Origin: Escherichia coli
GTDB lineage: Bacteria; Pseudomonadota; Gammaproteobacteria; Enterobacterales; Enterobacteriaceae
DNA length: 64,000 nt
Assembly (NCBI RefSeq): GCF_013315695.1
Contig: NZ_CP054353.1
Strand: one strand, 5' to 3'
This document shows positions 2,130-38,844 of this stretch, in pieces (the stretch's first letter is position 1; each line of letters opens with the position of its first letter). The notes beneath the pieces were generated by a model, which was given only the letters and a program-made list of their open reading frames with translations, was not told the DNA's origin and did no database searches. Both the position numbers and the translations under genes were made by a program.

Positions 2130-3293
2130 TTACGCCTTCTTTATATCCTCCATAATTCCACAGTGGGACATATTTGGGACATTATCACCAAAAATGTCGT
2201 CTATTTTCCTTGCATGCTCTGTCAAATGATTAGGCGCAAGGTGAGCATACCTACGAACCATTTCTATGGACTCCCATCCGCCCATTTCCTGAAGCACAGA
2301 TAATGGGACGCCTGACTGGATCAGCCAGCTTGCCCAGGTGTGTCTGAGGTCATGGAAACGGAAATCTTCAATTCCTGCACGACGACAAGCTGATAGCCAT
2401 GATGTCTTGCTGTCGATGCGCATCTTCCTGACCGCAGGCGTTGATGTTCCATCTGCTCGCTTAGTCGCCTTGGTATGTACAAACACCCATTTGTGATGCT
2501 TGCCTATTTGATCACGCAACACTTTACAGGCGGTATCGTTCAGCGCCACACCAATGGCGCGGTTTGATTTGCTCTCTTCTGGATTCACCCAGGCAACTCG
2601 TCGCTGCATGTCGATTTGTTGCCATTCCAGATTTATGATGTTCGACTTTCTCAGACCAGTTGCCAGCGCAAACTTGACGACAGATTTCAGTGGTTCGGGG
2701 CACTCATCAATAAGGCGTTTTGCTTCCTCCTTTTCCAGCCATCTGACTCGCTTGTTTCTGACCGCTGGTATCTTGATGACAGGCGCTTTTTCCAGCCACT
2801 TCCAGTCGCGTTCTGCAGCACGGAGAATGGCCTTTATCATGGCAAGATGCTTTGCCTTTGTCTGAGTTGATACTGGCTTTGGTTCATAAACAGGCGGTTC
2901 TTTACCTTTCCTGATGGCGGCCTGAACTTTCTGTTTCCATATTTCTTTCGTCTTTCTGTTATGCATTCTGCTTACAGCAGAGTAAATCTTTGCCTCCGAG
3001 ATATCTTTAAGCCTTATACCCTCAAAATGTTCAAGCCAGAACTCAATCCGGCTTTTATCTGAATCGAGAGATTTTTTATCAGCTTTTTCCTCAAGCCATC
3101 TTAGGCAGGCCTCTTCAAAAGTGACATCAGGTAAATCCCCTAGCTTTTCTACTCGCCAGAGTTCTGCTTTTCGCTTGTCGTGCAACTCCTGAGCTTGCCG
3201 CTTGTCCTTTGTGCCAAGAGATTCCTTAATTCGTTTCCCGCCCGGGAGCGAATACGAGGCATACCATATTTCATTTCTGCGGAAGAGTGACAT
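2130..3293 (-). CDS. intD: Phage tyrosine integrase
   Basis: 387-aa product with C-terminal tyrosine-recombinase core (..[17 protein letters not shown]..); directly adjacent to argU. Confidence 0.85.
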
Positions 3294-4714: not shown

Positions 4715-4842
4715 TTTGTTCTCCACGTATATGCACTGCACCGCGCTGAATTCTGGTAAAAGGAAGCCCTCACCATCCGGTGATTATTGAGTTAATTACG
4801 TTTCCATAAATGCCCCCGCAGGGGCATTTGCAGTAATGAAAT

Positions 4843-24065: not shown

Positions 24066-24391
24066 AGACCTTCCGCTGGAAAGTGAAACCAGGTATGGAT
24101 GTGGCTTCGGTCCCTTCTGTAAGAAAGGTGCGCTTTGGTGATGGCTATTCTCAGCGAGCGCCTGCCGGGCTGAATGCCAACCTGAAAACGTACAGCGTGA
24201 CGCTTTCTGTCCCCCGTGAGGAGGCCACGGTACTGGAGTCGTTTCTGGAAGAGCACGGGGGCTGGAAATCCTTTCTGTGGACGCCGCCTTATGAGTGGCG
24301 GCAGATAAAGGTGACCTGCGCAAAATGGTCGTCGCGGGTCAGTATGCTGCGTGTTGAGTTCAGCGCAGAGTTTGAACAGGTGGTGAACTGA
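24062..24391 (+). CDS. M: Tail tip protein M
   Basis: 109 aa, lambda gpM. Confidence 0.85.
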   Translation: MKTFRWKVKPGMDVASVPSVRKVRFGDGYSQRAPAGLNANLKTYSVTLSVPREEATVLESFLEEHGGWKSFLWTPPYEWRQIKVTCAKWSSRVSMLRVEFSAEFEQVVN

Positions 24392-26467: not shown

Positions 26468-29400
26468 ATGGGTAAAGGAAGCAGTAAGGGGCATACCCCG
26501 CGCGAAGCGAAGGACAACCTGAAGTCCACGCAGTTGCTGAGTGTGATCGATGCCATCAGCGAAGGGCCGGTTGAAGGTCCGGTGGATGGATTAAAAAGCG
26601 TGCTGCTGAACAGTACGCCGGTGCTGGACACTGAGGGGAATACCAACATCTCCGGTGTCACGGTGGTGTTCCGTGCCGGTGAGCAGGAGCAGACACCGCC
26701 GGAGGGGTTTGAATCCTCCGGCTCCGAGACGGTGCTGGGTACGGAAGTGAAATATGACACGCCGATCACCCGCACCATTACGTCTGCAAACATCGACCGT
26801 CTGCGCTTTACCTTCGGTGTACAGGCACTGGTGGAAACCACCTCAAAGGGTGACAGGAATCCGTCGGAAGTCCGTCTGCTGGTTCAGATACAACGTAACG
26901 GTGGCTGGGTGACGGAAAAAGACATCACCATTAAGGGCAAAACCACCTCGCAGTATCTGGCCTCGGTGGTGGTGGGTAACCTGCCGCCGCGCCCGTTTAA
27001 TATCCGGATGCGCAGGATGACGCCGGACAGCACCACAGACCAGCTGCAGAACAAAACGCTCTGGTCGTCATACACCGAAATCATCGATGTGAAACAGTGC
27101 TACCCGAACACGGCACTGGTCGGCGTGCAGGTGGACTCGGAGCAGTTCGGCAGCCAGCAGGTGAGCCGTAATTATCATCTTCGCGGGCGCATTCTGCAGG
27201 TGCCGTCGAACTATAACCCGCAGACGCGGCAATACAGCGGTATCTGGGACGGAACGTTTAAGCCGGCATACAGCAACAACCCGGCCTGGTGTCTGTGGGA
27301 TATGCTGACCCACCCGCGCTACGGCATGGGGAAACGTCTTGGTGCGGCGGATGTGGATAAATGGGCGCTGTATGTCATCGGCCAGTACTGCGACCAGTCA
27401 GTGCCGGACGGTTTTGGCGGCACGGAGCCGCGCATCACCTGTAATGCCTGGCTGACCACGCAGCGTAAGGCGTGGGATGTGCTCAGTGATTTCTGCTCGG
27501 CGATGCGCTGTATGCCGGTATGGAACGGGCAGACGCTGACGTTCGTGCAGGACCGACCATCAGATAAGGTGTGGACCTATAACCGCAGTAATGTGGTGAT
27601 GCCGGATGATGGCGCGCCGTTCCGCTACAGCTTCAGCGCCCTGAAGGACCGCCATAATGCCGTTGAGGTGAACTGGATTGACCCGAACAACGGCTGGGAG
27701 ACGGCGACAGAGCTTGTTGAAGATACGCAGGCCATTGTCCGTTACGGTCGTAATGTCACGAAGATGGATGCCTTTGGCTGTACCAGCCGGGGGCAGGCAC
27801 ACCGCGCCGGGCTGTGGCTGATTAAAACTGAACTGCTGGAGACGCAGACCGTGGATTTCAGCGTGGGTGCTGAAGGGCTTCGCCATGTACCGGGCGATGT
27901 CATTGAAATCTGCGATGATGACTATGCCGGTATCAGCACCGGTGGTCGCGTGCTGGCGGTGAACAGCCAGACCCGGACGCTGACGCTCGACCGTGAAATC
28001 ACGCTGCCATCCTCCGGTACCACGCTGATAAGCCTGGTTGACGGAAGTGGTAATCCGGTCAGCGTGGAGGTTCAGTCCGTCACCGACGGACTTAAGGTGA
28101 AAGTGAACCGGGTTCCTGACGGCGTTGCAGAATACAGTGTGTGGGGGCTGAAGTTGCCGACGTTGCGTCAGCGCCTGTTCCGCTGTGTGAGTATCCGTGA
28201 GAACGATGACGGCACGTATGCCATCACTGCCGTGCAGCATGTACCGGAAAAAGAAGCCATCGTGGATAACGGGGCGCACTTTGACGGCGACCAGAGCGGC
28301 ACGGTGAATGGTGTCACGCCGCCAGCGGTGCAGCACCTGACCGCCGAAGTCACCGCAGACAGCGGGGAATATCAGGTGCTGGCGCGCTGGGACACGCCGA
28401 AGGTGGTGAAGGGCGTGAGCTTCCTGCTCCGTCTGACCGTAACAGCGGATGACGGCAGTGAGCGGCTGGTCAGCACGGCCCGGACGACGGAAACCACATA
28501 CCGCTTCACGCAACTGGCGCTGGGGAACTACAGACTGACAGTCCGGGCGGTAAATGCGTGGGGGCAGCAGGGCGATCCGGCGTCGGTATCGTTCCGGATT
28601 GCCGCACCGGCAGCACCGTCGAGGATTGAGCTGACGCCGGGCTATTTTCAGATAACCGCCACGCCGCATCTTGCCGTTTATGACCCGACGGTACAGTTTG
28701 AGTTCTGGTTCTCGGAAAAGCGGATTACCGATATCAGGCAGGTTGAAACCACAGCCCGCTATCTTGGTACGGCGCTGTACTGGATAGCCGCCAGTATCAA
28801 TATCAAACCGGGCCATGATTATTACTTTTATATCCGCAGTGTGAACACCGTTGGCAAATCGGCATTCGTGGAGGCTGTCGGTCAGGCGAGCGATGATGCG
28901 GAAGGTTACCTGGATTTTTTCAAAGGCCAGATAACCGAATCCCATCTCGGCAAGGAGCTGCTGGAAAAAGTCGAGCTGACGGAGGATAACGCCAGCAGAC
29001 TGGAGGAGTTTTCGAAAGAGTGGCAGGACGCTAACGATAAGTGGAATGCCATGTGGGGCGTCAAAATTGAGCAGACCAAAGACGGCAAACATTATGTCGC
29101 GGGTATTGGCCTCAGCATGGAGGACACGGAAGAAGGCAAGCTGAGCCAGTTTCTGGTTGCCGCTAACCGTATCGCGTTTATTGACCCGGCAAACGGGAAT
29201 GAAACGCCGATGTTTGTGGCGCAGGGCAATCAGATATTTATGAACGACGTGTTCCTGAAGCGCCTGACGGCCCCGACCATTACCAGTGGTGGAAATCCAC
29301 CGGCATTTTCCCTGACATCAGACGGAAAGCTGACCGCTAAAAATGCGGATATCAGTGGCAGAGTGAATGCGAACGCCGGGACGCTCAACAATGTCACGGT

Positions 29401-29881
29401 AAATGAAAACTGTACGATTAAGGGCATGCTGGAGGCGACTCAGGTCAGAGGTGACTTCGTTAAAGCTGTATCCAAATCATTCCCGAAACAGGCTGGTACG
29501 TGGGGTAACACGGAAACACCAAACGGGACGGTTACAGTCACCATCAGCGATGATCATAACTTTGACCGTCAAATCATTATTCCGCCCATTATCTTTAACG
29601 GAATAGCGTATAGCGATCCGGGAAGTGGTAATAACCCGGGAGGTACAAGATACACGGGTTATGGTTTTGAAGTTCGCAAAAACGGTGTATTAATCGCATC
29701 CAGAGAAACTAAAGGGGCCATTCCCGGTAGCTACAGTGCGGTTATTGATATGCCGAGTGGCAGGGGAAGCGTCACTCTGGAGTTTAAGGTTTTCCATAAA
29801 GGCAATCAGTGGGCAGGTAATATCACCGACTGTACGGTGATTGTGACCAAAAAAGCCGCTTCCGGCATCAGTATTCGTTGA
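26468..29881 (+). CDS. J: Central tail fibre / host-specificity protein J
   Basis: 1137 aa, lambda gpJ; the C-terminal ~150 codons are visibly lower in GC. Confidence 0.9.
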
Positions 29882-29950: not shown

Positions 29951-30550
29951 ATGCGTAAACTTTATGCCGCCATTTTGTCCGCAGCCATTTGTCTGGCCGT
30001 ATCCGGTGCGCCTGCATGGGCATCTGAACATCAGTCCACGCTGAGCGCGGGGTATCTTCATGCCCGGACCAACGTTCCCGGCAGTGATGATCTGAACGGG
30101 ATTAACGTGAAATACCGTTATGAGTTTACGGATACGCTGGGGCTGGTGACGTCATTCAGCTATGCAGGAGACAAGAATCGCCAGCTGACCCGTTACAGCG
30201 ATACCAGCTGGCATGAAGATTCCGTGCGTAACCGCTGGTTCAGCGTGATGGCGGGGCCGTCTGTGCGCGTGAATGAATGGTTCAGCGCGTATGCGATGGC
30301 GGGTATGGCTTACAGCCGTGTTTCGACTTTTTCCGGGGATTACCTTCGCGTAACTGACAACAAGGGGAAAACGCACGATGTGCTGACCGGAAGTGATGAC
30401 GGTCGCCACAGCAACACGTCTCTGGCGTGGGGGGCTGGCGTGCAGTTTAACCCGACCGAATCCGTGGCCATTGATATTGCTTATGAAGGTTCTGGCAGTG
30501 GTGACTGGCGCACTGACGGTTTCATCGTGGGTGTCGGTTATAAATTCTGA
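29951..30550 (+). CDS. lom: Lom outer-membrane protein (Ail/Lom family)
   Basis: Signal peptide MRKLYAAILSAAICLAVSGAPAWA, 8-strand barrel, C-terminal ..GFIVGVGYKF. Confidence 0.85.
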   Translation: MRKLYAAILSAAICLAVSGAPAWASEHQSTLSAGYLHARTNVPGSDDLNGINVKYRYEFTDTLGLVTSFSYAGDKNRQLTRYSDTSWHEDSVRNRWFSVMAGPSVRVNEWFSAYAMAGMAYSRVSTFSGDYLRVTDNKGKTHDVLTGSDDGRHSNTSLAWGAGVQFNPTESVAIDIAYEGSGSGDWRTDGFIVGVGYKF

Positions 30551-30614: not shown

Positions 30615-33011
30615 ATGGCAGTAAAGATTTCAGGTGTACTGAAAGACGGCACAGGAAAACCGGTACAGAACTGCTCAATCCAGCTGAAAGCAAAACGTAA
30701 CAGCACCACGGTGGTAGTGAACACGCTGGCCTCAGAAAATCCGGATGAAGCCGGGCGTTACAGTATGGATGTTGAGTATGGCCAGTACAGCGTTATCCTG
30801 CTGGTTGAAGGTTTTTCGCCTTCACATGCCGGGACCATCACCGTGTATGAAGATTCTAAGCCGGGGACGCTGAATGATTTTCTCGGTGCCATGACGGAAG
30901 ATGATGTCATGCCGGAGGCATTGCGTCGTTTTGAGGAAATGGTGGAAGAAGCGGCACGCAACGCTGAAGCCGCCTCTCAGAGCGCAGCGGCGGCAAAGAA
31001 ATCCGAAACTGCAGCGGCATCATCGAAGAACGCGGCGAAAACCTCAGAAACGAATGCAGCTAATAGTGCACAGGCGGCAGCGACCTCAAAGACTGCATCG
31101 GCAAACTCCGCGACAGCAGCCAAAAAATCAGAAACCAACGCGAAAAATAGCGAGACAGCCGCAAAGACGAGCGAAACCAACGCAAAGTCCAGCCAGACGG
31201 CAGCGAAAACCAGCGAAACGAATGCCAAAGCCAGTGAAACTGCGGCAAAAAACAGCCAGGTTGCAGCAGCCCAAAGCGAGAGCGCGGCAGCCGGTTCTGC
31301 GACTTCAGCAGCTGGATCAGCAACTGCTGCGGCTAACAGCCAGAAAGCTGCGAAGACGAGTGAAACTAACGCAAAGTCCAGCCAGACGGCAGCGAAGACC
31401 AGCGAAACGAATGCCAAAGCCAGCGAAACTGCGGCGAAAAACAGTCAGGATGCAGCAGCCCAAAGCGAGAGTGCTGCAGCTGGTTCTGCAAGCGCGGCGG
31501 CTGCTTCTGCCACTGCATCAGCCAACAGTCAAAAAGCAGCAAAAACCAGTGAAACCAATGCAAAGACAAGCGAGACTGCAGCGGCGAACTCGGCGAAAGC
31601 ATCGGCAGCAAGCCAGACAGCAGCTAAAGCAAGTGAAGACGCAGCCAGAGAGTATGCAAGTCAGGCAGCAGAGCCGTATAAATATGTCTTACAGCCACTG
31701 CCTGATGTGTGGATACCGTTTAACGATTCACTGGATATGATTACGGGCTTTTCGCCGTCATATAAAAAAATTGTTATTGGTGATGATGAAATAACGATGC
31801 CTGGCGACAAGGTTGTTAAGTTTAAACGCGCATCAACTGCCACATATATCAATAAATCAGGCGTATTTAGTGTTGCTAAAATTGATGAGCCACGATTTGA
31901 AAAAGAAGGTTTATTGATTGAAGGACAGCGCACTAACTATTTTGTTAAATCCAATACTCCCGCTGAATGGACGAGTACCAGCAATATCGATAAAACTAAT
32001 AATGGTGTTGATGAATTTGGTTTTTCATATGCCAAAATGCGAACAAAAGATAATATGACAGGACAATCATCTGCACTTAGTCTGCATACATGCAGTGCAT
32101 CCCGGGGGATTGATGTTAGTGGCGATAATAAGTATTGCACTGTTTCATGCAGGGTTAAAGCTCCTGATGGTCTTCGTTGTCGTTTGCGTTTTGAAAAATA
32201 CGATGGGTCGGTTTATACATTTTTAGGAGATGCTTATTTAACTTTCGGAACTCTGATAATAGAAAAAACTGGCGGAGCAGCCAATAGAATAGCAGCTACT
32301 GCAACTAAAGATCCGGTTACAGGGTGGATTTTCTATGAGGCAACTATAGAAGCTGTTGAAGGTGAAACCTTAATTGGCGCAATGATTCAGTATGCGCCGA
32401 AAAAAGGTGGTATAACTGAAGCGGGAGATTATATTTACCTTGCAACACCACAATTTGAAAACGGCGGATGTGCTTCATCTTTTGTTATTACGACAACTGC
32501 ACCCGCAACCCGCTCCAGTGATATGGTGACGATCCCAACTGAAAATAATATCTATAATAGACCGCTTACGTGTCTTGTCGAGGTTAATAGAAATTGGGGC
32601 GATATTCCTCCTAATGTAGCACCGCGTATTTTTGATTTTTCTGGTGTGCCACCTATTGAGTCAATTACATACGCTTTTAACACAACTGAGAAATATTACG
32701 GTCAGCTTTATATGCAAACTTATAAAGCGTCGACAAGTACTTACGTTTCTAGTGTGTTTGCTGGTCGAGCTGATGTTCGAAAATTCATTGGTGGTTTTAA
32801 TATTTATTCTGATGGTACTAAACGAGTAGTTTCTAACGGTGAGGCTACTAAAACTATGAAAACGGAGTGGACGGGCGTAAAAACACGGACCTTTATTCGA
32901 ATTGGAGGTCAAGCCACATCGGGAACTCGTCATCTATTCGGCCATTTGAGAAATCTTCGTCTCTGGCATAAAGAATTAACTGATGCGCAAATGGGGGAGA
33001 GTATTAAATGA
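30615..33011 (+). CDS. stf: Side tail fibre Stf, intact single ORF; lambda-type N-terminus and repeats, divergent low-GC C-terminal domain
   Basis: 798 aa; N-terminus MAVKISGVLKDGTGKPVQNCSIQLKA..; Ser/Ala/Thr/Lys repeats; C-terminus ends ..GHLRNLRLWHKELTDAQMGESIK, resembling LamG/ConA-like lectin domain ends. Confidence 0.8.
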   Translation: MAVKISGVLKDGTGKPVQNCSIQLKAKRNSTTVVVNTLASENPDEAGRYSMDVEYGQYSVILLVEGFSPSHAGTITVYEDSKPGTLNDFLGAMTEDDVMPEALRRFEEMVEEAARNAEAASQSAAAAKKSETAAASSKNAAKTSETNAANSAQAAATSKTASANSATAAKKSETNAKNSETAAKTSETNAKSSQTAAKTSETNAKASETAAKNSQVAAAQSESAAAGSATSAAGSATAAANSQKAAKTSETNAKSSQTAAKTSETNAKASETAAKNSQDAAAQSESAAAGSASAAAASATASANSQKAAKTSETNAKTSETAAANSAKASAASQTAAKASEDAAREYASQAAEPYKYVLQPLPDVWIPFNDSLDMITGFSPSYKKIVIGDDEITMPGDKVVKFKRASTATYINKSGVFSVAKIDEPRFEKEGLLIEGQRTNYFVKSNTPAEWTSTSNIDKTNNGVDEFGFSYAKMRTKDNMTGQSSALSLHTCSASRGIDVSGDNKYCTVSCRVKAPDGLRCRLRFEKYDGSVYTFLGDAYLTFGTLIIEKTGGAANRIAATATKDPVTGWIFYEATIEAVEGETLIGAMIQYAPKKGGITEAGDYIYLATPQFENGGCASSFVITTTAPATRSSDMVTIPTENNIYNRPLTCLVEVNRNWGDIPPNVAPRIFDFSGVPPIESITYAFNTTEKYYGQLYMQTYKASTSTYVSSVFAGRADVRKFIGGFNIYSDGTKRVVSNGEATKTMKTEWTGVKTRTFIRIGGQATSGTRHLFGHLRNLRLWHKELTDAQMGESIK
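31179..31556 (+). repeat. Two tandem ~189-bp copies (63 codons each) inside stf
   Basis: aacgcaaagtccagccagacggcagcgaa... recurs at 31179 and 31368 at ~90% identity. Confidence 0.7.
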
Positions 33012-33289
33012 AAGATTTAACACTCAAATTTGCAGACAGGGCCGACTTTTCGGCCTTTATGGAGAGCATTGGCTATTATGATGACGAGTCGATGCAGGAT
33101 GATATTCTTATTGACGTGATAGGTAATGTGTACAAAGAAACCGGAGAACTTACTGAAGATGGCGAGCCGGTATGTGTTAAGGAGGACGGATATTTTGTAA
33201 ATGTGCGCATCATTAATGATTCGCAAATATCGTCATTATTCGATGAATACGTGGTTGCTGTTGAGCATCAACTCCGTAGCTGGATGTGA
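33008..33289 (+). CDS. Hypothetical highly acidic 93-aa protein, translationally coupled to stf
   Basis: ATGA overlap with the stf stop; D/E-rich; no recognisable family. Confidence 0.45.
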   Translation: MKDLTLKFADRADFSAFMESIGYYDDESMQDDILIDVIGNVYKETGELTEDGEPVCVKEDGYFVNVRIINDSQISSLFDEYVVAVEHQLRSWM

Positions 33290-33298
33290 GGAAGAAAA

Positions 33299-34003
33299 AT
33301 GGCTACATCGACAGTAATTCCTGATGACATCAAAACGCTAAAGGGAGATGTCAGTAAGGCAAAGGAAGATATTTCCTCAATTAACGTAAAAGTATCAACG
33401 CTTCAGACTGATATGGACAGTGCAAAGCAGGATATCAGTACCAGATACACAAAAACAGAAGTGGATAATAAGCTGAAAAACAAAGTGGAAGTGAACGATC
33501 TGGAAAGTGGTCGTTATGGCGGAGATTTTTACCCGCTGACTGGCCGTGAAGCGTTTTATTTATGGGGATTGGGCACAACTACAGCGGCGGCAAATCTTTA
33601 TCTTAATCCTGACCCTGCAATTTCGTCTGTGCTGCGGTCAACATCGTCTATCCGCTATAAACATTCAGTAGAGACGATAGATTCAGAGCACGCCGATCTC
33701 ATTTTCAGGATGCGCCCTGTGTGGTACAGGTCGCAATGCGAAAATGACAGGCGTGACTGGGGATTCTATGGATTGATTGCCGAGGAAGTAGGAGAAATTG
33801 CCCCTCAGTTTGTTCACTGGCGACCAGCCAACGAAGATGATGCACCGGAAACCATTTCCAGCAATGGCCTTGTTGCCGAAGGTGTAATGTACGAACGTCT
33901 GGTTGTTCCACTGATTCACCATATCCAGAAACTGACTGAAAGAGTTGATGAACTTGAGTCAGAATTGAAGTTGTTATCAACTTCCCAAAGCGATATCGGA
34001 TAA
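33299..34003 (+). CDS. Short fibre-like protein: coiled-coil N-terminus plus C-terminal intramolecular-chaperone (peptidase S74-like) domain
   Basis: ..STSSIRYKHSVETID..LIFRMRPVWYR..GFYGLIAEEVGEIAPQFV..LVAEGVMYERLVVPLIHHIQKLTERVDELESEL.. Confidence 0.55.
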   Translation: MATSTVIPDDIKTLKGDVSKAKEDISSINVKVSTLQTDMDSAKQDISTRYTKTEVDNKLKNKVEVNDLESGRYGGDFYPLTGREAFYLWGLGTTTAAANLYLNPDPAISSVLRSTSSIRYKHSVETIDSEHADLIFRMRPVWYRSQCENDRRDWGFYGLIAEEVGEIAPQFVHWRPANEDDAPETISSNGLVAEGVMYERLVVPLIHHIQKLTERVDELESELKLLSTSQSDIG

Positions 34004-34013
34004 AGGAGGAGTA

Positions 34014-34307
34014 ATGGATATAACACCTTTTCTTCATGCGCTTTGTGCTGTGGCTGCGCAGGTAATGATTGGTCTTTTTGCCGGAAACTGGGTTTACGGG
34101 GCGATAGCCGGTTGTACGTTCTTCATTGCGCGTGAACACACCCAGGCAGAATATCGCTGGATTGAAATGTTCGGGCATGGCAAGTGGATTAACATGCCGT
34201 GGTGGGGCGGTTTTGATCCGCGTGTTTGGGATGTGGCAAGCCTGATAGATTTTGCTGTGCCGGTGGTGGCGTGTCTGCTGGTCTGGCTGTTGGTTAATCG
34301 TGGGTGA
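34014..34307 (+). CDS. Small predicted membrane protein (97 aa)
   Basis: Strong RBS aggagg; hydrophobic segments LHALCAVAAQVMIGLFAGNWVYGAIAGCTFFIA and LIDFAVPVVACLLVWLLV. Confidence 0.5.
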   Translation: MDITPFLHALCAVAAQVMIGLFAGNWVYGAIAGCTFFIAREHTQAEYRWIEMFGHGKWINMPWWGGFDPRVWDVASLIDFAVPVVACLLVWLLVNRG

Positions 34308-34317
34308 AAAAAGGTGA

Positions 34318-34446
34318 GCTGTATATGCAACGGAGGAAGAAACCCCGTTGCTGGAAGCCTGGAAAAAGTATCGGGTGTTGCTGAACCGTGTTGATACATC
34401 AACTGCACCTGATATTGAGTGGCCTACGAACCCTGTCAGGGAGTAA
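34318..34446 (+). pseudogene. 3' remnant of a tail fibre assembly gene (tfa)
   Basis: 42 codons ..[39 protein letters not shown] with an in-frame stop immediately upstream. Confidence 0.65.
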
Positions 34447-34500
34447 TCATTGGGATTATGCCGCAGCACGTCTTAAGCAAGAACGTGCTGCGGTTGGATG

Positions 34501-35169
34501 CTATTTTTTCCCTGAAGCGGAAAACATTACTACAGTACCTTGAACCTTGGTTTTAACATTCTCGAAATGCTCTGAGAGTATATGTGTTAAGCCTTCTTCG
34601 GAATCTTTTGTGTTTGAAAAGATGCCTTTCTGATTGTAAATGCGCATCAGTTTTTGACCGAAGCTATTGTGCACAACTCCATCGCCAAGAATTGTGGCTC
34701 CGTATAGAGTTCCATCGTCAGTTAAGGCCTGCGCCGCATTGCGTATTACACAGCTTTTTGTAGATATATTTCCAGGCAGGCAGTGAAGAAGGTAAAACAT
34801 GGAAATGGAATCAAATTGACCATGTAACGCCGCGGGATAAGGTTCAAAAACATCATGGCTAATTTTATGTTTAATTTTTGATTCCCCAGCCCTTGTAGAT
34901 GCCGCGTTCAGGCTAGCTTCGTTCAAATCCATTAAAGATATCAGACTACTCTCAGGTACGTGAGTAAGGTAAAACCCAGTTCCAACACCAATATCCAGAT
35001 GGTTGTTACCTAAATGTTCCAGAAAGTGTGGAAGAAGGTGTTCCTTTGTAGGACATCCCCATGCAAGCCGATTTGATACTCCCAAAACCCACCAGTCATA
35101 AAGCTTTAGGGTAAGTGGTGTGTAAATTTTAGCCCCATCATCTGTGTTTTTTTTCATTAATTTCACCAT
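34501..35169 (-). CDS. ybcY: Class I SAM-dependent methyltransferase (YbcY-like)
   Basis: Motif I ..HLDIGVGTGFY..; low GC; same position between tfa fragments as ybcY in DLP12. Confidence 0.7.
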   Translation of the reverse strand: MVKLMKKNTDDGAKIYTPLTLKLYDWWVLGVSNRLAWGCPTKEHLLPHFLEHLGNNHLDIGVGTGFYLTHVPESSLISLMDLNEASLNAASTRAGESKIKHKISHDVFEPYPAALHGQFDSISMFYLLHCLPGNISTKSCVIRNAAQALTDDGTLYGATILGDGVVHNSFGQKLMRIYNQKGIFSNTKDSEEGLTHILSEHFENVKTKVQGTVVMFSASGKK

Positions 35170-35225
35170 GTTATAGTTTTATTTGTGAATTAAATCAATT
35201 ATGGCGATGAATTACAAGGGGTTAA

Positions 35226-35524
35226 ATGCTGCCGCAGCATAGCGATATTGAAATAGCCTGGTATGCTTCGATACAGCAGGAGCCGAATGGCTGGAAGACC
35301 GTCACCACACAGTTCTACATCCAGGAATTCAGTGAGTATATTGCGCCACTGCAGGATGCTGGGAAATCGCAACGGAGGAAGAAAGATCGTTGCTGGAGGC
35401 ATGGAATAAATATCGGGTATTGTTGAATCATGTTGATACATCAGTAGCTCTGGGTATGAAGCTGTTTGTAACTCATGTTACAGTAACAGCCATTACTATC
35501 TCGAAGGTGCAAAATGTATATTGA
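35226..35524 (+). pseudogene. Frameshifted tfa fragment (tfaX-like)
   Basis: ..[10 protein letters not shown].. in one frame, then ..[27 protein letters not shown].. in another. Confidence 0.6.
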
Positions 35525-35710
35525 TTTGATATTTTATAAATTTACTTCGAATCTGGCACGTCAACTTTTGATTAAAGTAATATCAGTTTTCGGCGAAAAA
35601 AGGACCGTGTACATGAGACGATTTCATACAAGAATAACAAAAATATGAATATGCTCCCAATGCAATATATGTTTTGCATTGGGAGCAAATAGCGGAATAT
35701 TTTGAAATTA

Positions 35711-37192
35711 TTATATTTCTGCTTCAGAATTTCCTGGGCAGTATATATTTTCTATTTTTTGTGGAGTGATCAGGTGATGTACAACTGCTTTATCTACACA
35801 TAAATTAACTCCGGTGAGAGCTAATGTATGCCCATCACCATTTATTGTTAGTAACGGGCTGGAAAATTTCTCTGCCATCTTACGGGCATTAATCCAGGGC
35901 GTTGTTGGGTCGTATTTGTGTGCTACAAACAGTAAACCAGAGGGCAGAACAGTATTTTTCAGGCGAGTTTTGTTCAGGTCGCTATGTATTGGCCATAATT
36001 CACAAAAATCAGGTGAATCGGAACGTCCATTGTCAAAGTTAATAGCCGGGAAGGCATTCGCAAGAGCGTCTTTTCGGGATTTTCGCTCTTCTGGTGTTAA
36101 TTGCTCATCCCCCTGATCTACACAGAGGATTACCCCCGAAGCATCGCTTGACTCTTCTGAGGCTATCTGAGCACTGAGCGCAGTTTCAATTTCATTACTG
36201 ACAATCCCCTGAGAGAACTGGCGTATGGCAGTTGCAAGGGTTGGCCATGATGAACGCCATAGCAGAAGGTCTGTTGTTAATGATATGAGTTCATCTGAAG
36301 ATATATTTTCTCCCTTACTGTCTAATAAAGGTTTGTGATGTAATTTTGATAATAGCTCATGGAACTGAGTTATTGCCTTATCTCTGTCTGAAGAAAGCGG
36401 GCAACTTTTTGTACGCGCACACCAGGATGCAAAGCGATCAAACGTTTCCTGATAACTCTGTGCCTGTTTGAGTTGCCATGTGAAGTTGTCCTCCAGGTCA
36501 TCGATATCGACGACTCCATCAAGAACGATAGATCTTACGTTGTAGGGAAAACGTTCTGCATATAAGGCTGCAATTTGAGTTCCATACGAATACGCCACGG
36601 CTGTCAGTTGTTTATCCCCCAAGGCTTGCCTAATACGATCAATATCGTATACAGCCTCGTTAGAGCCGATATGGCGAATGACTTCGGCTCCGGTATTATG
36701 GATACAGGCATTAATTTTATTTAATACTTGTTGCTTTTCGGTTATGTTTTCCTGAGTCTCTGTATCTGATTGCCGGCAGTTTATTGTCGGAGTGGACTGT
36801 CCGACGCCTCGAGGATCAAATCCAATAATATCCCATGACTCACGAAGATTTGTGACTGGCCAGTCAAAGTTAATATAAGGATTTATGCCTGGTAACCCGG
36901 GACCACCACTTATTATCAGGATACTTCCTTTATGCTTGCTTTTTGCCGGCAATTTTGTCAACGCTAGTTTGACTTGTGATTTTTTTTCATAAGAAGCATC
37001 TCCGCCTGTGTCTGTATATTTTAATGGAACAGACAAATAACCACATAGTAAGTCAGGAGACGGTTTTTCCTCACCAAACCAGTGGTTGAATTGACTGGCC
37101 ATACAGGATTGCCACTGTATCTGCTGGGCAGATACGGTTACTGGTAGAAGTAACGTTAAAACAACTTTGAAATGAGTAATTATTTTTCGCAT
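35711..37192 (-). CDS. Secreted alpha/beta hydrolase (S33 / TAP-like peptidase family)
   Basis: Signal peptide MRKIITHFKVVLTLLLPVTVSA; nucleophile elbow AYSYGT; C-terminal ..TINGDGHTLALTG..; low GC. Confidence 0.7.
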   Translation of the reverse strand: MRKIITHFKVVLTLLLPVTVSAQQIQWQSCMASQFNHWFGEEKPSPDLLCGYLSVPLKYTDTGGDASYEKKSQVKLALTKLPAKSKHKGSILIISGGPGLPGINPYINFDWPVTNLRESWDIIGFDPRGVGQSTPTINCRQSDTETQENITEKQQVLNKINACIHNTGAEVIRHIGSNEAVYDIDRIRQALGDKQLTAVAYSYGTQIAALYAERFPYNVRSIVLDGVVDIDDLEDNFTWQLKQAQSYQETFDRFASWCARTKSCPLSSDRDKAITQFHELLSKLHHKPLLDSKGENISSDELISLTTDLLLWRSSWPTLATAIRQFSQGIVSNEIETALSAQIASEESSDASGVILCVDQGDEQLTPEERKSRKDALANAFPAINFDNGRSDSPDFCELWPIHSDLNKTRLKNTVLPSGLLFVAHKYDPTTPWINARKMAEKFSSPLLTINGDGHTLALTGVNLCVDKAVVHHLITPQKIENIYCPGNSEAEI

Positions 37193-37378: not shown

Positions 37379-38332
37379 TTAAAAGGTGTACTTAAGACCA
37401 GCAGTAGTGATGAAGTTATAGTTTTCTATGCCTGCACCATTTTTGCTGTAGTCTGAAGTGTTATCATTGTGATCATAAAGTGAAGTATTACCTTTTTTAT
37501 TCGTAACCCGATTCCATGCGCCTTCAACATAAACTTTTGCGTTAGGTGTTACGTAATAACCTGCATTGACTGCAACAGAATAGTAATTTTGGTCTTTGAC
37601 TTTACTGCGATAAGTGATTCTTTTTCCTGGGTCATAGTGCTCATCGTTATCAGATGCTTCCACCCAGCCGCTGTATTTAAATGTGCCACCTAGCTCAAAA
37701 TCTTCATAACGATAACTTCCAGTCAAGCCAATGTAGGGCATTTTAAAACGTTGTTTGTAGCCGATTGCTCTTTCTCCATTCGGGAAGGAGCCGATATCAT
37801 CTCTGAATCCCTCCTCAGAACTGTAGATATAGGAACCACCTCTGGCTGTAAAGCTATAACGGCTTTCCTGATATCCGGCCATGAGTCCCAGGCGGTAATT
37901 GGGTTCGTTGAGGAGCCAGCCTTTGATATTCAGATCAAATTCGTTGGCATAATTGAGTTGTGTATCAGGGTGCCTACTTTCATCTGTCCAGGTTCCGGGG
38001 TTACTGGAATCCATCCAGTCCTGATCGACCATATTGCCACCTCGGCTGCCGAGAGTAGTCCAGCCCGCAGCCCCAATAGATATCTGGGGCATCAAATCCC
38101 AATTAATTGCACCTTTAATAATTGCAGCGTTATTGAATTTCCAGTCGAGTTGACTGACTTTTCGGCCTCCTTCTTCAGCTAGATAAACGCGCTCTTTTGT
38201 TTTTCCGCTCAGAGTTCCAAGACTAATGTCCGCATTTATGTTGTCAGGAGTAAACGATATAGTCTCGGTAGAAGCAAAAGAGCTGATCGCAATAGGGGTT
38301 GTCAGGACTATTCCCAGAAGTTTCGCCCGCAT
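37379..38332 (-). CDS. ompT: Omptin outer-membrane protease OmpT
   Basis: 317 aa, MRAKLLGIVLTTPIAISSFA...TAGLKYTF. Confidence 0.9.
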   Translation of the reverse strand: MRAKLLGIVLTTPIAISSFASTETISFTPDNINADISLGTLSGKTKERVYLAEEGGRKVSQLDWKFNNAAIIKGAINWDLMPQISIGAAGWTTLGSRGGNMVDQDWMDSSNPGTWTDESRHPDTQLNYANEFDLNIKGWLLNEPNYRLGLMAGYQESRYSFTARGGSYIYSSEEGFRDDIGSFPNGERAIGYKQRFKMPYIGLTGSYRYEDFELGGTFKYSGWVEASDNDEHYDPGKRITYRSKVKDQNYYSVAVNAGYYVTPNAKVYVEGAWNRVTNKKGNTSLYDHNDNTSDYSKNGAGIENYNFITTAGLKYTF

Positions 38333-38753
38333 AAAAGTTCTCCATTCAATCGTTTTAATGATTGAATATGTATTTTTTATATCTAACTTAATGAGTCAAT
38401 TACATATTGCTCCACTGTTTATATTTTGTTTAGTATTGAATGATTATCACAATGCGCTATCTGTTTTTGGTTTAATTATCTGTTATTGTTTTATGTTGCG
38501 GTTTTACTGTGTGGTTTTTTATGCTTTTGTGGTGTTTTTATCTATTTAAGCGCCATGCCTTTAGAGGCATATAAGCGAAAATAGCATGAGGTTTATCCTC
38601 AATTGCTATGTTTTTTGGTACAAAAAAGAGGGACAAAACTGAGACACATAAGGCCTCACAATGGCTTGCAAGGCTTTACATGTTTTGAGGTAGTGGGACG
38701 TGTGAGCGCAGAGATGGCGCGGTAAGTTGTTGACTTAAAATGTCGTTCTAGGA

Positions 38754-38800
38754 ACTTCTAAGTCGTGGGCCGCAGGTTCGAATCCTGCAGGGCGCGCCAT
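38754..38800 (+). repeat. attR core: 47-bp partial copy of the argU 3' end
   Basis: Identical to 2070-2116; flanking sequence differs on both sides. Confidence 0.85.
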
Positions 38801-38844
38801 TTCTTCTTCATTTATCCCCGTCTTATCCGTTTCCGCTTTGCCCT

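Follow-up and report, generated by a model that had tools for sequence, protein, structure and literature searches.

Two tfa remnants flank the predicted methyltransferase gene ybcY in a lambda-like prophage of Escherichia coli

In the window analyzed here, a 64,000-nucleotide stretch of Escherichia coli DNA from contig NZ_CP054353.1, two same-strand remnants of the C-terminal part of tfa bracket the minus-strand gene ybcY, which encodes a predicted S-adenosylmethionine (SAM)-dependent methyltransferase. This anatomy, proposed in the initial annotation, is borne out by a 75-nt direct repeat, by translated searches and by the Pfam Caudo_TAP profile. The locus is not new: it is the tfaD-ybcY-tfaX locus of the K-12 prophage DLP12, which is already annotated. 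In all likelihood the two remnants are the scars of two separate events that involved different tfa alleles, and the arrangement as a whole is an ordinary, very common recombination scar that fits the standard mosaic picture of lambdoid phages. It already figures in the annotation of K-12 and of thousands of RefSeq genomes and carries little weight as a discovery. Its use is as a clean, nucleotide-level example of how short conserved seams, namely a block within tfa and a terminator hairpin, serve the shuffling of modules and cargo, and its point of interest is YbcY itself, an intact methyltransferase that appears to be under purifying selection in ∼70% of E. coli.

Prophage setting and gene order

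The tRNA-Arg(UCU) gene argU occupies positions 2038-2114 of the window, and the 50 nt at its 3′ end are found again at 38752-38801. This 50-nt att repeat (attL copy at 2067-2116; attR, the plus-strand copy of the argU 3′ end, at 38752-38801) delimits a 36.7-kb lambda-like prophage (2067-38801) integrated at argU, and the whole finding therefore sits within the cargo (b) region of the prophage, 3.3-4.4 kb from attR. Over the stretch considered here, the window is 100% identical to E. coli strains MSB1_4I and NCTC86. The right arm of the prophage contains J (26468-29881), lom (29951-30550), a side tail fibre gene with a lambda-type N-terminus (30615-33011), orf93 (33008-33289), a gene for a fibre protein with an S74 intramolecular-chaperone domain (33299-34003) and plus-strand orf97 (34014-34307), whose small hydrophobic product matches phrog_1443, a family of unknown function. 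Beyond the tfa-ybcY-tfa region, the next cargo gene is on the minus strand and encodes a secreted TAP-like α/β hydrolase (35711-37192), with a terminator hairpin at its 3′ end (35652-35687, minus strand); it is followed by ompT (37379-38332, minus strand) and attR, and then by the chromosomal genes envY, ybcH and nfrA. This is very probably the region where the tail-fibre genes give way to the accessory (b-region) cargo. Its outer limits differ from the interval of 34318-35524 that was originally assigned, since tfa homology begins at 34327 (or at 34315, if a degenerate stretch is counted) and position 35524 is merely the stop codon of a chance open reading frame.

The assignment to the DLP12-type locus is based on synteny, on 97% nucleotide identity over positions 34327-35448, across which gene order and orientation are identical, and on argU with its att repeat. 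The right end of DLP12 in K-12 comprises tfaD, ybcY and tfaX (all pseudogenes), appY, ompT, pauD and envY, and the chromosomal site is likewise the interval from argU to a pseudo-argU attR, with envY-ybcH-nfrA beyond. Several differences separate the two loci. In the window, ybcY is intact, whereas in K-12 it is frameshifted; a different fibre module has left only 39 codons of the upstream tfa; and the hydrolase gene sits where K-12 has appY. The second tfa remnant carries a 7-nt deletion that is absent in K-12, while K-12 tfaX changes to another tfa allele from position 35398 onward.

Two pseudogene remnants of tfa

Comparison of the region with itself yielded one direct repeat of 75 nt, with plus-strand copies at 34327-34401 and 35369-35443 that are 85% identical and spaced 1042 nt apart. 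The copies match at 64 of 75 positions, as against a maximum of 40 of 75 over 30 shuffles of the region. The remaining 11 positions at which they differ are mostly synonymous.

The first remnant (34327-34446, plus strand) consists of the last 39 codons of tfa and the stop codon. A tblastn search aligned it to residues 156-194 of lambda Tfa with 87% identity (E value of 2e-20), its identity to the Tfa of phage PhiR26_1 is 97%, and its translation ([39 protein letters not shown]) is followed directly by a stop. The Pfam profile Caudo_TAP (PF02413) matches it above the gathering score at profile positions 95-130 (E value of 6.6e-17). An in-frame stop codon at 34315-34317, directly upstream, argues that this fragment is non-functional, and PGAP labels it a partial tfa pseudogene.

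The second remnant (35313-35450, plus strand), the equivalent of K-12 tfaX, had been taken for a second tfa 3′ end. Here it is instead an internal piece that spans residues ∼137-182 and is frameshifted. In tblastn searches it aligned to residues 154-182 of lambda Tfa with 83% identity (E value of 5e-12) and, in another frame, to residues ∼137-150. The frameshift results from a 7-nt deletion after position 35361 that, among the relatives examined, is common only to phage 2G7b. Caudo_TAP matches an in-frame allele of this fragment at profile positions 75-131 (E value of 3.9e-25, above the gathering score). The tfa homology ends after the residues VDTS(VA), at 35443-35450.

Both fragments fall on the conserved C-terminal part of Tfa and not on different parts of the protein. 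Tfa chaperones are composed of a variable N-terminal fibre-binding domain and a conserved C-terminal helical domain, according to the account of North et al. 2019 given in PMC9608196. As a consequence of this conservation, the block that runs from ATEEE to IEWP (34327-34424) is a stretch common to many otherwise different tfa genes. The remnants resemble modular Tfa chaperones in that each retains the conserved C-terminal part, but neither constitutes a complete translatable tfa, the N-terminal fibre-binding domain is absent from both and a working chaperone could not be encoded. Judged from their reading frames, both pieces are non-functional pseudogene remnants.

It is highly improbable that the fragments have been kept for a function, whether as coding sequence for small proteins or as DNA that regulates ybcY. 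Fragment 2 does accompany ybcY in ∼90% of ybcY-bearing genomes, and a SELEX promoter that faces tfaX is listed in the shared spacer (PMC3946193). However, fragment 2 is frameshifted here, contains an internal stop in K-12 and is variously truncated elsewhere, fragment 1 is immediately preceded by the in-frame stop described above, and the ybcY promoter lies 120 nt from fragment 2.

Origin of the two remnants

Direct repeats around a foreign, low-GC gene are also what a target-site or tandem duplication would leave behind if a mobile element had inserted into a single tfa. Several features of the locus speak against such a duplication, which is scarcely credible here. The copies extend over 75 nt at 85% identity with mostly synonymous differences, which is the signature of distinct tfa alleles and effectively refutes this explanation; no transposase gene, integrase gene or terminal inverted repeats lie between them; and fragment 2 reaches 50 nt further upstream into tfa than does fragment 1.

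Two tfa-related sequences near a tail-fibre gene are likewise found in the invertible tail-fibre switches of Mu (Gin), P1 (Cin) and e14 (Pin), and these switches hold the alternative copy inverted. A pin invertase gene does reside between tfa and ybcY in phages PhiR68_2 and Kati, as might be expected if the second tfa piece were a relic of such a switch. In the window, by contrast, both tfa pieces are in direct orientation on the same strand, there is no invertase gene at or near the locus, the repeat search returned no inverted crossover repeats around the segment, and no alternative fibre C-terminal exon accompanies fragment 2. Descent from an invertible switch is thus extremely improbable.

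A more serious alternative is that homologous recombination in the conserved 3′ block brought the ybcY cargo into one tfa gene. A circle could have integrated in Campbell-type fashion, or a double crossover could have taken place between overlapping arms; in either case the repeats would be the direct product of entry. The geometry is that of a single crossover, as fragment 1 runs from the block to the stop codon and fragment 2 from upstream tfa sequence through the block; breakpoints do fall inside the block; and short, diverged homology is accepted by Red-type recombinases. Nonetheless, the outer flanks in the window are not tfa (orf97 is on the left, and unrelated sequence is on the right). 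Fragment 2 begins at ∼codon 137 in every locus examined, outside the highly conserved block, and the unit also occurs, bounded by the hairpin, with other genes between tfa and ybcY. The copies themselves have only 85% identity, and their longest identical stretch is 16 nt. Finally, no reciprocal pop-out product could be found in 5426 complete E. coli genomes. For a first pop-out construct, the best full-length match was a normal locus still with ybcY, and for a second, in which intact tfa is joined through the fragment 2 block to the hydrolase side, no place in these genomes was covered to at least 80%. We therefore regard entry through the repeat, as the initial annotation had envisaged it, as unlikely.

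The breakpoints on the right and on the left of ybcY instead point to two separate events. On the right, the join of the spacer upstream of ybcY to ∼codon 137 of tfa (35312-35319) is the same in every locus aligned. Phage Ayreon carries the spacer without fragment 2, which fixes the boundary between spacer and tfa at 35312. In prophages adjacent to potB, fragment 2 runs in frame to the natural tfa stop (…[17 protein letters not shown], stop), which indicates that the second remnant is the tail of a once-complete second tfa. On the left, PhiR26_1, strain 14EC001 and EDL933 have a complete tfa upstream of ybcY; in the window, 2G7b, PhiR49_1, PhiR49_2, 4A7 and L005, only its last 39 codons are present, and they abut orf97, the last gene of a fibre module with its own chaperone domain. 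The distance from the orf97 stop codon to the first remnant is 19 nt in the window (the type-A junction), and 2G7b, PhiR49_2, 4A7 and L005 have an identical junction sequence; this left junction, in which orf97 is followed by truncated tfa, is common to phages with an S74-type fibre module. In a second type of left junction (mEp460, Ayreon and L003), the remnant directly follows a long stf and begins 12 nt further upstream; a GAGCTG variant is common to both types. Moreover, ybcY alleles in most genomes reach 99% identity or more, as against 85% between the repeat copies, which argues for different tfa alleles and not for a single insertion.

From the observed anatomy, homologies, distribution and breakpoints, we infer the following order of events and recombination mechanisms. 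In a first step, the ybcY upstream spacer would have been linked to a resident tfa at ∼codon 137 by an old, single, non-homologous join, a founding event deduced solely from the invariance of this join, which lies outside the conserved block. The join may have arisen by deletion in a tandem lysogen or by unequal exchange between two phages, and its product would be the unit hairpin-ybcY-spacer-'tfa that is now found in most E. coli. In a second step, in the lineage of the window, a self-chaperoning fibre module would have replaced stf-tfa and left behind the last 39 tfa codons. The unit would later have been re-linked to other backbones and cargo by homologous recombination at the tfa C-terminal block and at the hairpin. 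A pre-insertion, or empty, site of ybcY was not found. Phage Ayreon, in which the equivalent of position 34538 is joined to that of 35199, was considered as a candidate but retains the conserved last 12 codons of ybcY and is hence a deletion derivative.

Distribution and later shuffling at the tfa block

The ybcY gene is present in 3831 of the 5426 complete E. coli genomes (∼71%), with up to four copies per genome. The 5′ end of ybcY, the spacer and fragment 2 are contiguous in 3435 of these genomes, and the tfa 3′ block, the hairpin and the 3′ end of ybcY in 3065; all of these counts are BLAST coverage classes, and ∼20 loci were inspected nucleotide by nucleotide. In sequenced phages (2G7b, ev243, PhiR26_1, PhiR49_1, Kati and others), the tail-fibre genes lie on one side of the ybcY block and att-int on the other. 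In 2G7b and PhiR26_1, which are infectious phages with the complete block, it is followed by the same hydrolase and ompT genes as in the window.

Several of the inspected loci contain breakpoints within the conserved block or at its edges. Fragment 2 of the appY type (K-12, PhiR68_2 and ETEC4090) equals the window up to position 35397, and from 35398 its mismatches are spaced by three bases at third codon positions, as befits another tfa allele. In L005, fragment 1 has 15 mismatches, all of which fall within block positions 7-46. Phages of the 4A7 type retain 57 nt of the block beside sitABCD, and mEp460 retains 97 nt beside dinI. To the right of fragment 2, the sequences diverge at 35443-35450 into three contexts, namely hydrolase-ompT, appY-ompT and an attR beside potB. 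In EDL933 and PhiR68_2, other cargo separates an intact tfa from ybcY, either a manganese catalase cluster or pin with ynaE. There the 35-nt hairpin, and not tfa, forms the left edge of the ybcY unit. Altogether, the cargo shuffled at these seams includes ybcY, dinI, sitABCD, pin, the catalase cluster, appY and hydrolase-ompT.

These observations partly support the original proposal that the conserved 3′ end of tfa is a recombination hotspot. The proposal is reasonable for the later shuffling, as breakpoints do cluster in this block, but is not a reasonable account of how the structure arose, as the founding join lies outside it. In E. coli, efficient RecA-dependent exchange needs a rough minimum of ∼25 bp. 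The two repeat copies have at most 16 nt of uninterrupted identity, which is below this value and in keeping with a stable arrangement. Red-type recombinases can use homology that is short and diverged. Experiments by De Paepe et al. 2014 (PMC3945230) show that stf-tfa homology serves as a crossover substrate when lambda exchanges DNA with Rac and Qin prophages, in a Red-dependent process of relaxed homologous recombination. The short, diverged flanks with traces of recombination described in that study resemble the breakpoints in the tfa block. The study does not cover ybcY or duplicated tfa ends, and the founding join proposed here differs in being non-homologous.

We tentatively suggest that hairpin-ybcY-spacer-'tfa could act as a homology-flanked cassette, installed behind the tail-fibre genes of any lambdoid phage, and re-linked to other cargo, by Red-type recombinases, for which imperfect homology over tens of bases is enough. 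Its left edge might then be the hairpin, which recurs in lambdoid b regions, and its right edge, just as tentatively, the near-universal Tfa C-terminal block. If this reading were true, the tfa 3′ end would be a de facto integration site for cargo, and the spread of ybcY through 71% of E. coli genomes, with as many as four copies at different att sites, would be explained.

Transcription signals and the cargo status of ybcY

The ybcY gene (34501-35169, minus strand) is preceded by a predicted promoter, TTGATT-17 nt-TATAAC (35170-35198, minus strand), read from the sequence. Its hexamers and spacing are identical to those of a published promoter of ybcY in K-12, a constitutive RpoD promoter that was identified by SELEX and bears an H-NS mark (PMC3946193). 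The site was located by matching the published hexamers; a generic promoter scan did not list it, because the -10 hexamer ends in C. The promoter is presumably active in this strain and would provide only a very short leader before Met5 (see below), and the gene is probably silenced by H-NS.

Downstream of both tfa and ybcY lies a G+C-rich hairpin followed by a T-run on the plus strand (34460-34494), which has a folding energy of -28.5 kcal/mol (z score of -5.2) and is the lambda-type terminator after tfa. It is situated 7 nt beyond the stop codon of ybcY, which is on the opposite strand, and is predicted to terminate both genes. The hairpin is kept after lambda tfa and occurs again at lambda positions 24161-24202.

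Between the promoter and fragment 2 is a spacer (35199-35312) that travels with ybcY. PGAP labels minus-strand positions 35244-35324 a DinI fragment ('DinI family'). When the DinI-like protein of PhiR49_2 and K-12 DinI (an approximate query) were used as tblastn queries, neither gave significant DinI homology in this interval (best E values of 0.43-0.62).

The genes that lambda carries where ybcY sits here are ea47, ea31 and ea59. Lambda morons, lom and bor among them, are accessory genes with a transcription of their own. The ybcY gene resembles the morons of the lambda b region in its position directly after tfa and a terminator, in its orientation opposite to late transcription, and in its predicted promoter and terminator and atypical G+C content. 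The initial annotation had called the gene low in G+C, and its value of 40.8% indeed compares with 51.1% for the prophage and 57% for the late region. Among similar phages, ybcY is present in 2G7b and PhiR26_1 and absent from lambda, PhiR49_2 and mEp460. As phages without it exist, ybcY is dispensable for phage growth. Presence and absence among similar phages together with atypical base composition are the marks of a moron, and we consider it likely that ybcY is a self-contained cargo gene of this kind with its own putative σ70 promoter.

YbcY as a predicted methyltransferase of small-molecule type

YbcY matches Pfam Methyltransf_12 and exhibits the hallmarks of class I SAM-dependent methyltransferases, namely a Rossmann-type fold, a SAM-binding motif I (GVGTG, residues 61-65) and an acidic residue that ends strand 2. 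Homologues begin at Met5, and phrog_2132 matches residues 5-222; for this reason, the true start is probably Met5 at position 35157, which would give a protein of 218 amino acids. The AlphaFold2 model of YbcY has a pLDDT of 89.5. Its structural neighbours, taken as a flat list, are small-molecule, lipid and tRNA methyltransferases; they include phosphatidylethanolamine (PE) N-methyltransferase, JHAMT, NodS and phosphoethanolamine methyltransferases, as well as DhpI, Coq5, UbiG and CmoA, and no DNA methyltransferase is among them. A motif search likewise found the catalytic motif IV of DNA methyltransferases, [DNS]PP[YFW], to be absent from YbcY. Judged by motif IV or a PC motif with ENV, together with a DNA target-recognition domain, YbcY belongs to neither the N6A/N4C nor the C5 DNA methyltransferases. 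The initial view that the enzyme is not of the DNA type therefore holds, and on the basis of the model YbcY is a predicted class I SAM methyltransferase of small-molecule type. No specific substrate emerged from NCBIfam, the PDB or gene context: NCBIfam gave only sub-threshold matches (CpaM and RquA), a PDB sequence search gave only weak matches (UbiG and JHAMT), and no conserved partner gene is found near the chromosomal orthologues of ybcY. A role in defence was also considered and set aside, the PADLOC match being negligible. A search of the literature on ybcY, tfaX and morons beside tfa returned no functional study of ybcY.

Orthologues of YbcY with 56-68% identity are encoded by stand-alone chromosomal genes in Salmonella and Enterobacter, which suggests that the phage-borne ybcY is a captured host gene that came from the chromosome of an enterobacterium. 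All nine of the non-K-12 loci checked have an intact copy. The ratio dN/dS among E. coli ybcY alleles, calculated from few differences, is ∼0.1, a value that points to purifying selection on the methyltransferase.

Deletion and insertion at the tfa remnants

The genome of phage Ayreon lacks the sequence corresponding to window 34539–35198 (the junction lies at about position 4220 of L012), which comprises the promoter of the SAM methyltransferase gene ybcY and all but its last 12 codons. Ayreon retains the tfa remnant, hairpin and spacer that accompany ybcY and is therefore a clean deletion derivative for this gene.

A further short seam may be the terminator hairpin located 3′ of tfa (window 34460–34494). 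In both EDL933 and phage PhiR68_2, the ybcY unit (hairpin, ybcY, spacer and second tfa remnant) begins on its left precisely at this hairpin. In lambda (L008), the hairpin is found at 3122–3172 and again at 4725–4766, the latter being a second copy, 86% identical, that is situated in the b region (lambda 24161–24202).

Other sequences adjoin the conserved C-terminal tfa block in related genomes. The block is reduced to 57 nt in about 25 phage records, exemplified by phage 4A7 (L019 4501–8022), where it directly abuts sitABCD, an iron/manganese transporter operon carried as cargo on the minus strand; transposase genes also interrupt stf in 4A7. In the O157:H7 strain EDL933 (L004 6004–8446), the IS66-family element ISEc8 is located exactly at the end of the second tfa remnant (window 35442–35450). 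The matches on either side of ISEc8 overlap by 9 bp, which is consistent with a target-site duplication.

Annotated small reading frames

RefSeq places a 45-amino-acid open reading frame at window 34419–34556 (+), labelled as a hypothetical protein here and as a nucleocapsid protein in other genomes. It is probably a spurious call, because it overlaps the tfa stop codon, the terminator hairpin and the 3′ end of ybcY. Within the spacer upstream of ybcY, RefSeq also annotates a pseudogene fragment of a DinI family protein (window 35244–35324, minus strand). This resemblance to DinI was not reproduced by similarity search (best E values of 0.43–0.62). Intact dinI-like genes follow the tfa remnants in phages PhiR49_2 and mEp460.

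Flanking genes

To the left, the side tail fibre gene contains an internal tandem duplication of 189 nt (window 31107–31484; copies 83% identical), encoding repeats rich in Ala, Ser, Thr and Glu of the type AAKTSETNAKSSQTAAK. Two further genes, orf93 (33008–33289; phrog_1361) and the hydrophobic orf97 (34014–34307; phrog_1443), accompany the fibre module that bears the S74 chaperone in several phage genomes; searches of Pfam and NCBIfam returned no match for either.

To the right of the second tfa remnant, a TAP-like alpha/beta hydrolase of 493 amino acids (window 35711–37192, minus strand), whose N-terminus resembles a signal peptide, is carried as phage cargo at the position held by appY in K-12. 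It matches phrog_20134 and the PADLOC candidate model C3a206 (E 3e-56). The ompT gene (window 37379–38332) lies within the prophage, left of the att repeat at 38752–38801, and the sequenced genome of phage 2G7b likewise carries ompT, just ahead of its integrase gene.
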